In this document: positions 26,123 through 26,277 of the stretch, one piece after another
Numbering within the stretch: the stretch's first letter is position 1
How the letters are laid out: each line of letters opens with the position of its first letter
Source of the DNA: Escherichia phage EC.P1
DNA: 64,000 bases
Sequence record: PQ657772.1
Strand: one strand, 5' to 3'
Position numbers and translations under genes: made by a program
The notes under the pieces: generated by a model
Seen by the model: the letters and a program-made list of their open reading frames with translations, nothing else
Database searches by the model: none
What the model was told of the DNA's origin: nothing

Positions 26123-26277
26123 CGGGACCGTAAGTGACAATAACAACATTATAGTAGGTATTACGAATATTGTCAATGTTTTTTTCATTTTATTTCCTTG
26201 TGGGACCGTAAGTGACAATAACAACATTATAGTAGGTATTACGAATATTGTCCATGTTTTTTCATTTTATTTCCTTA
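26123..26277. repeat. tandem direct duplication, two copies of about 78 bp
   Basis: gggaccgtaagtgacaataacaacattatagtaggtattacgaatattgtcaatg... repeated at 26123 and 26201; second copy has tgtcca for tgtcaa and one fewer T. Confidence 0.75.
26147..26175 (-). promoter_or_regulatory. sigma70-type promoter (TTGACA-17-TATAAT) inside repeat copy 1
   Basis: Plus-strand tgtcaa 26170-26175 and attata 26147-26152; copy 2 carries a degenerate -35 (TGGACA). Confidence 0.55.

Follow-up and report, generated by a model that had tools for sequence, protein, structure and literature searches.

Gene organization of the locus and structure of the repeat

The window examined here is a stretch of 64,000 nucleotides from Escherichia phage EC.P1 (PQ657772.1), in which all long open reading frames (ORFs) lie on the minus strand and 113 non-overlapping minus-strand ORFs account for 91% of the sequence. 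Escherichia phage BF17 shares 99.8% identity with the region, and we assign the window to an Asteriusvirus jumbo coliphage of the 121Q/PBECO4 group. The corresponding locus of phage 121Q falls within an extended series of small hypothetical genes, accompanied by tRNAs and a gene for a sigma factor. All features described below are on the minus strand, which is the coding strand and the one to which upstream and downstream refer.

Three small genes follow one another at the locus. The first encodes a 78-aa protein (26262..26498), a homologue of 121Q gp75 that belongs to phrog_13902 and has no assigned function. The second is an intact 55-aa gene (26021..26188), homologous to 121Q gp76, whose stop codon overlaps the ATG of the third, a 140-aa gene (25602..26024) that is homologous to 121Q gp77 and belongs to phrog_15599, likewise without an assigned function. 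The 55-aa gene is defined by its translation, its homologues, its hydropathy profile and its annotation in phages BF17 and WPEC5. Read from the ATG at 26188, its product has the sequence MKKTLTIFVIPTIMLLLSLTVPQGHVVALNVVEIILLVIHCIVCYYYVKSDDKKI and contains two hydrophobic helices; it is 70-98% identical across the genus, with the two-helix hairpin conserved, and a homologue search recovered Asteriusvirus proteins only. It has no PHROG match. The Pfam family RseC_MucC was considered for this protein and set aside, the match being sub-threshold (E = 0.006; 16.9 bits against a cut-off of 24.4 bits) and put down to two-helix membrane composition. A 525-aa ENA protein (P0017) falls into the 90%-identity cluster of the 55-aa protein and may represent a read-through or fused gene call.

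The boundary between the 78-aa and 55-aa genes lies within a head-to-tail tandem array (26118..26276) with a period of 78, 2.1 copies and 96% matches (Tandem Repeats Finder, score 295). A separate repeat search splits the same array into a segment of 67 nt at 97% identity with a spacing of 78 nt and one of 20 nt at 100% identity with a spacing of 77 nt. A 78-bp repeat of 96% identity is far beyond chance, and its extent agrees with alignment and with the single-copy relatives described below. The 78-bp tandem duplication reported at 26123-26277 in the preliminary description is therefore real on the evidence of both programs, with its true limits at 26118-26276. On the coding strand the array comprises an upstream unit A of 77 nt (26276..26200), a downstream unit B of 78 nt (26199..26122) and a terminal AAGG microhomology (26121..26118); the complementary CCTT occurs at 26118, 26196 and 26273, such that a 4-nt direct repeat brackets each unit. 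Alignment and the repeat search agree on three differences between the copies: a T/G difference in a -35-like hexamer (minus-strand bases at 26175 versus 26253), a run of seven as opposed to six A residues (A7 at 26179-26185 versus A6 at 26257-26262), and a G/A difference (minus-strand bases at 26123 versus 26201). The first two had been noted before as the only ones; the third escaped attention, and its position 26123 is the first base of the interval given at that time.

Each unit begins on the coding strand with AAGGAAATAAA-ATG-AAAAAA(A)-CA-T(T/G)GACA and contains the final four codons of the 78-aa gene with their stop, followed by the Shine-Dalgarno sequence, ATG and initial 22 codons of the gene after it. 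The actual end of the 78-aa gene (...KEIK-TGA) falls within unit A, where its last four codons are followed by a TGA that overlaps the ATG of this unit (ATGA). The A6 run of unit A (26257..26262) is A7 in unit B (26179..26185) and in every intact single-copy allele. As a consequence of the missing base, unit A encodes only a remnant ORF of eight codons, MKKHGQYS* (26239..26265), which from its translation and alignment we read as the former gene start, out of frame through loss of one A. The intact 55-aa gene starts instead in unit B, where the Shine-Dalgarno sequence AAGGA (26195..26199), 6 nt before the ATG at 26188..26186, coincides with the junction of the duplication.

Distribution and alleles of the duplication

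Comparison with related genomes, which had been suggested in the preliminary description, recovered both one-copy and two-copy forms among close relatives. A 301-bp query spanning the repeat matches BF17, WPEC5, fEgEco12 and Ecwhy_1 over 301-302 bp, WPEC3, Turkey3, vB_Ec-M-J, CMSTMSU, TH47 and ph0011 over 222-224 bp, and other genomes over at most 216 bp; coding-strand alignment reveals exactly one unit in all of the shorter matches. Thus, one copy is present in WPEC3, Turkey3, vB_Ec-M-J, CMSTMSU and TH47 (97-99% identical), in ph0011, 121Q, PBECO4, UE-S1 and A4, and in many Logan and ENA contigs, and two copies are present in the four GenBank phages with full-length matches, in one ENA contig and in at least six Logan contigs. 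The annotations of the single-copy genomes place the 55-aa gene adjacent to the 78-aa gene with an ATGA overlap. Given that the single-copy form is found in all shorter matches, both in relatives as close as the two-copy phages and in every distant one, one copy is the ancestral state, and among the genomes compared the duplication is limited to part of one clade whose members are 97-99.8% identical in this region.

In the single-copy allele, the Shine-Dalgarno sequence and codons 22-23 (CAAGGG) each contain an AAGG, the two lying 78 nt from one another, and AAGG is also the sequence at the junction of the duplication. Read from these alignments, such a junction is the classic signature of a slipped-strand or microhomology-guided duplication. 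As the unit of 78 nt equals 26 codons, the event was originally in frame.

Several alleles are found at the locus, written here as the states at the three positions that distinguish the copies of the window. The majority form has one copy and reads A7/TGG/CCA; the protein variant of vB_Ec-M-J alone is found on 57 contigs, and single-copy alleles are accordingly the majority in public data. Other single-copy alleles are A7/TGG/CCG (contigs L028 and L035), A7/TTG/CCG (contigs L036 and L037) and a frameshifted A6 form, seen in CMSTMSU (L008), in GCA_050939295.1 (L018) and, with CCG, in a Logan contig from ERR3531548 (L016). The A7/TTG/CCG allele is real, since a 31-mer that joins the end of the 78-aa gene to A7-CATTG is absent from the two-copy allele. 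The two-copy form [A6/TGG/CCA]+[A7/TTG/CCG] is shared by the window, BF17, WPEC5 and an ENA metagenome contig (L038); fEgEco12 has TTG in both copies and A6 in copy A, and Ecwhy_1, whose record is flagged UNVERIFIED, has A7 in both copies together with two substitutions and an annotated product of 81 aa. The same locus is annotated with a protein of 55 aa in BF17 and WPEC5, 68 aa in the ENA contig, 77 aa from a non-ATG start in fEgEco12 and 81 aa in Ecwhy_1. A neighbouring gene of 92 aa in fEgEco12 is labelled 'DNA primase/helicase', a label that is doubtful at such a size.

The two-copy records derive from isolates from Poland, Finland and Thailand and from an unspecified freshwater source. 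Informative SNPs within 1 kb on each side place the two-copy allele on at least two upstream haplotypes, both of which are also seen with one copy. An allele found on several flanking haplotypes points to a segregating polymorphism as opposed to an artefact, and from these haplotypes we conclude that the duplication is polymorphic in a freely recombining population and does not mark one clone.

Origin of the two-copy allele

Every difference between the two copies of the window is also present among single-copy alleles. It is therefore conceivable that the two-copy allele did not arise by slippage inside one genome followed by mutation, but in one step, by unequal microhomology-guided recombination between co-infecting genomes that carried different single-copy alleles, with the same end state. 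Suitable parents can be named: A7/TTG/CCG is present in L036 and L037, TGG/CCA in the majority form, and A6/TGG/CCA in L018 and CMSTMSU; moreover, the highly mosaic flanks indicate that recombination is frequent. Against this, crossovers in the shared segments of 20 nt, 51 nt or 5 nt would be expected to delete one copy from the two-copy allele and so to yield these very single-copy alleles, and the upstream haplotype of L036 is also found with two-copy contigs. The flanking SNP haplotypes are too mosaic to separate a one-genome from a two-genome origin, and we regard the two-genome route as a tentative alternative of somewhat less than even probability.

The frameshifted single-copy A6 alleles of CMSTMSU, L018 and L016 correspond exactly to the products predicted for recombination between the copies, and under the deletion reading they would be scars of duplication loss. 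For L016 a collapsed assembly may be an equally good explanation. If these single-copy A6 alleles are real, the small gene would be dispensable, and its frameshift in CMSTMSU and L018 suggests that its dosage may matter little.

A conserved class of promoter-like sites

The window was searched for the pattern TTGACA-N16-18-TATAAT, with dinucleotide shuffles as background. The minus strand contains 31 sites that match at least 11 of the 12 positions, eight of them perfect, and the plus strand contains none. The shuffles predict a mean of 2.7 and a maximum of 6 sites at the threshold of 11/12 and 0.1 perfect sites, so that the minus-strand sites are enriched 11-fold. About half of the promoter-like sites are located inside ORFs. 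A run of at least five A residues within 25 nt upstream accompanies 9 of the 29 sites other than those of the repeat, as against 6.8% of random windows. Among the 27 of these other sites that could be aligned to 121Q, with flanks 73-100% identical, 23 keep a score of at least 11/12 in that phage, one keeps 10 and three keep 9 or less; two sites to which the program gave a score of 0 are plainly intact in the alignments with 121Q. The conserved sites often have diverged spacers, and this includes sites deep inside ORFs. As a class, these sites are predicted to be conserved promoters of the host RNA polymerase.

The predicted class agrees with what is known of related phages: CBB has RpoD-like promoters with UP-like elements in its presumed early region (PMC5259590), and PA5oct depends on the host polymerase and has TTGAC/TATAATA motifs at its start sites (PMC7318152). 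The RaK2 paper contains nothing on promoters, and the literature searched yielded no Asteriusvirus transcriptome. A dense and conserved set of host-type early promoters of this kind looks undescribed for Asteriusvirus. Three minus-strand sites elsewhere in the window (9035..9008, 8614..8586 and 7254..7226) share one spacer, reading TTGACT-AAATAGTTCAGTACTG(A)-TATAAT, with 92-100% identity to 121Q. These look like a dispersed, highly conserved promoter cassette, the spacer of which might contain an operator.

Promoter-like sites inside the repeat

Each copy of the repeat contributes one site to this class. The upstream site, P_A (26226..26254), reads TGGACA-17-TATAAT, matches 11 of 12 positions and lies behind an A-rich tract; its predicted start, near 26219, is upstream of the Shine-Dalgarno sequence and ATG of unit B. 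The downstream site, P_B (26148..26176), reads TTGACA-17-TATAAT, matches 12 of 12 positions and is embedded in codons 5-14 of the 55-aa gene. From a predicted start near 26141, its transcripts would cover the 140-aa gene, which is the first to lie complete downstream of P_B, and the genes beyond. The perfect TTGACA-17-TATAAT promoter previously ascribed to one copy is thus present, on the minus strand at 26176..26148, while the hexamer of the other copy is TGGACA, giving 11/12. A lone perfect site is only mildly unlikely, with 0.1 expected per strand of the window from dinucleotide shuffles; the set of sites across the window carries far more weight.

Both copies are 75% A upstream of the promoter-like site. 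The -10 hexamer TATAAT is invariant in all 15 genomes compared, but conserved Ile-Met codons (ATA ATG) occupy the same bases, just as Lys-Lys codons do in the upstream A-tract. The -35 hexamer scores 6/6 in A4, 5/6 in the close clade, 4/6 in 121Q and PBECO4 (TGGAAA) and 3/6 in UE-S1, and the site as a whole scores 12/12 at the same position in A4, 10/12 in 121Q and PBECO4 and about 9/12 in UE-S1. Going by these scores, the site of the repeat is a weaker and less conserved member of the promoter class. The perfect downstream copy, P_B, is quite likely to fire in vivo. In P_A, the G at the second position of the -35 hexamer is predicted to weaken the site, and we give this copy slightly better than an even chance of firing.

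Proposed mechanism and regulatory consequences

In light of the above, we propose that the locus probably represents a recent, segregating tandem duplication, mediated by AAGG, which gives the small gene a predicted promoter of its own. The repeat structure, ancestral state, junction, polymorphism and conservation of the promoter class are observed, and from them we infer the firing of the sites and any effect on fitness. In the proposed course of events, a 4-nt AAGG microhomology led to a tandem duplication where two genes linked by translational coupling meet, in a presumed early region. The duplicated unit, which extends from the AAGG of the Shine-Dalgarno sequence to that of codons 22-23, includes the ribosome-binding site and ATG, the part encoding the first transmembrane helix, and the predicted sigma70-type promoter. 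Both flanking genes stay undamaged, with the end of the 78-aa gene kept in the upstream copy and the 55-aa gene starting in the downstream copy. Subsequent change of A7 to A6 in the upstream copy reduced it to a dead stub of eight codons, leaving a protein of 55 aa.

In regulatory terms, the ancestral promoter would have started transcripts about 7 nt past its -10 hexamer, inside the 55-aa gene, and so could serve only the 140-aa gene and those beyond. The small gene itself would have needed transcription from further upstream, with its translation coupled to that of the 78-aa gene. A terminator-like hairpin, TGGGAGTACATTGTACTCCCA followed by TTTTC (28774..28794), lies just upstream of a 195-aa gene starting at 28755. 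Between this hairpin (28794..28774) and the repeat no site of at least 10/12 was found. After the duplication, two tandem promoters for the host RNA polymerase would lie 78 bp apart, with the start of P_A near 26219 and, about 30 nt further on, a Shine-Dalgarno sequence and ATG followed by the entire gene. The gene for the small membrane protein would thereby come under a promoter of its own and lose the ATGA coupling to the 78-aa gene. The A6 run would furthermore remove a would-be third hydrophobic helix and Lys-rich loop of the kind seen in Ecwhy_1; such a third helix would clash with the two-helix hairpin conserved in the genus, which is plausibly why A6 is the common two-copy allele.

The characterization of the locus as a promoter duplication "caught in the act" is apt to the extent that the duplication is recent, is polymorphic among phages about 99% identical and involves sites that fit an enriched class of predicted promoters. 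It does not describe a fresh event in one stock, since the two-copy form occurs in isolates from three countries, in several sequencing runs and on different flanking haplotypes.

Neutral and adaptive interpretations

A simpler interpretation is that the polymorphism is neutral: the need to encode K-K-T-L/W-T-I-F-V-I-P-T-I-M in an AT-rich genome would have produced the promoter motif incidentally, and the motif would be silent or of no relevance; the 77 additional nt would drift as junk and be readily lost by recombination between the copies. The degeneracy of the -35 hexamer in 121Q, PBECO4 and UE-S1 and the coincidence of the -10 hexamer and A-tract with conserved codons are in line with this, as are the decay of the upstream copy (A6 in most genomes, extra substitutions in Ecwhy_1) and the occurrence of single-copy A6 alleles in L016, L018 and CMSTMSU, as expected from copy loss. 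The predominance of one-copy alleles also fits, and as these are the majority there is no sign of the duplication being favoured. However, a perfect consensus on the transcribed strand, with 17 nt between its hexamers and an A-rich tract upstream, which belongs to a largely conserved class enriched 11-fold, very likely binds E. coli RNA polymerase, and the allele has lasted long enough to reach several haplotypes and countries. We consider a fully neutral repeat rather unlikely.

At the other extreme, the two-copy form could be an adaptive regulatory allele, in which an intragenic early promoter has been turned into a dedicated promoter of the small gene, uncoupled from the upstream operon, and in which the A6/A7 run and copy loss together act as a switch at the level of the population. 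Its states would be the two-helix protein of 55 aa expressed from a dedicated promoter, a three-helix protein of 81 aa, and a null allele arising by copy loss with A6. Were this true, the locus would show phase variation of a simple kind in a lytic phage; we consider it improbable.

Leader peptide and protein expansion

The preliminary description had alternatively suggested the expansion of a leader peptide, which is not borne out in the window, where the upstream copy has A6 and encodes only MKKHGQYS*. No Rfam family was detected in the repeat region at E <= 1, no terminator-like site was found within the repeat, and its RNA folds no better than shuffled sequences (z = +0.65, +0.39 and -1.32), the leader of about 30 nt having no notable structure. 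An attenuator-type leader peptide was rejected on these grounds, the presence of an eight-codon ORF notwithstanding.

Expansion of the protein at its N-terminus would require either translation of the 68-aa ORF (26021..26227) from 26227 or production of an 81-aa three-helix protein through polymerase or ribosome slippage on the A6 run, homopolymeric A runs being known slippage sites. The 68-aa ORF does exist as described earlier, and gene callers have taken it in the ENA contig, and a 77-aa ORF in fEgEco12. Nevertheless, it begins at an internal methionine, Met14 of unit A, and is without a Shine-Dalgarno sequence, so that it is probably not the real product; the ATG at 26188, by contrast, is preceded by AAGGA at a spacing of 6 nt. 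The longer form has in its favour that the 78-bp unit is in frame and that Ecwhy_1, with A7 in both copies, is annotated with an 81-aa protein in which both copies are in frame and hydropathy indicates three hydrophobic segments. However, the record of Ecwhy_1 is UNVERIFIED, and this is the only case in which the two copies can be read in one frame from a start with a ribosome-binding site; in the window they cannot. Copy A is A6 and out of frame in the window, BF17, WPEC5, fEgEco12, the ENA contig and six truncated Logan contigs. A third helix and Lys-rich loop would in addition be expected to disturb the conserved hairpin. Together these observations make an expanded protein very unlikely.

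Integrity of the two-copy assemblies

The preliminary description had named an assembly artefact as a refuting outcome, and several records bear on this. The BF17 genome was obtained from 2x300-bp MiSeq reads, which are long enough for the whole 155 bp, and that of fEgEco12 is an independent assembly from 150-bp paired reads, which were mapped back as a check. The ENA metagenome contig L038 resolves both copies and is identical to the window. The signature of the upstream copy, A6 with TGGACA, is present in at least six Logan contigs (L020-L025; five further places of the kind are listed); L020-L025 stop exactly 30 nt past the base that tells the copies apart. This distance is k-1 in a de Bruijn graph of k=31, as expected for a break at a repeat. 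A junction-specific pattern had no matches in JGI metagenomes, GTDB genomes or IMG/VR. A control pattern common to all alleles likewise had none in JGI metagenomes and GTDB genomes, and a search of IMG/VR for relatives returned 121Q alone; the clade is thus absent from the JGI metagenomes and GTDB genomes, and the missing junction matches say nothing about the repeat. Although short-read de Bruijn assemblies do break or collapse at the repeat (L016, L020-L025), an assembly or sequencing artefact has a negligible probability and is ruled out as far as sequence data allow, by the same two-copy structure in five independently assembled records (four GenBank phages and one ENA contig), by the span of the BF17 reads and by the agreement between assemblies on the bases that tell the copies apart.

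Relationship to known duplications and promoters

Short tandem duplications at microhomologies, arising through slipped-strand mispairing or illegitimate recombination, are classic in phage T4 and in bacteria. The duplication described here resembles them in its head-to-tail copies, in the 4-nt AAGG that flanks the unit on either side where it is unduplicated, in its instability by recombination between copies and in the later one-base homopolymer slip of the Streisinger type. It differs from them in being a natural polymorphism of wild isolates, found on several haplotypes and not as a laboratory mutant, and in spanning a gene boundary with neither gene damaged.

Strong tandem early promoters are known from T7 (A1-A3) and T5. 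The sites of the repeat share with these, and with the promoters of the Rak2-like jumbo phages CBB and PA5oct, the TTGACA-17-TATAAT form, the A-rich upstream tract and the orientation relative to the genes, as well as the setting in a region of many short hypothetical genes and the arrangement of two promoters in tandem. Unlike those early promoters, the site of the repeat lies in the first 14 codons of a gene as opposed to an intergenic region, and its -35 hexamer is poorly conserved in 121Q. Its tandem arrangement is also polymorphic and only a few mutations old, and it is known here from sequence, with predicted starts.

Three tandem paralogous genes of 54 aa (MTHEEWM...), about 80% identical, occupy 9046..9532 on the minus strand with a period of 161 nt and ATGA overlaps. 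We interpret them as the result of an older tandem duplication, in this same region, that involved entire small genes. They and the 78-bp repeat have in common tandem copies that start at a gene ATG, ATGA overlaps and an early-type region. In contrast to these paralogues, which are whole and all intact, the 78-bp repeat copies only the 5' third of a gene, and one of its copies is dead.

The kind of event that produced the repeat is well known and is an ordinary mutation. The instance is undescribed in the published genome papers of the clade, and those of BF17 and fEgEco12 mention neither the duplication nor promoters. For annotators, the locus carries a warning, as the same DNA has been called as 55, 68, 77 and 81 aa and is a point at which assemblies from short reads break or collapse. 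For the study of gene expression, it offers a ready-made, natural and isogenic test pair (for example BF17 or WPEC5 versus WPEC3 or vB_Ec-M-J) for Asteriusvirus early promoters, with parent-like, duplicated, decayed and apparently reverted alleles all sampled in nature. If the promoters are active, the locus would be a clean natural example of the one-step rewiring of expression by duplication of a gene start, in which a small duplication moves an internal promoter upstream of a complete gene.
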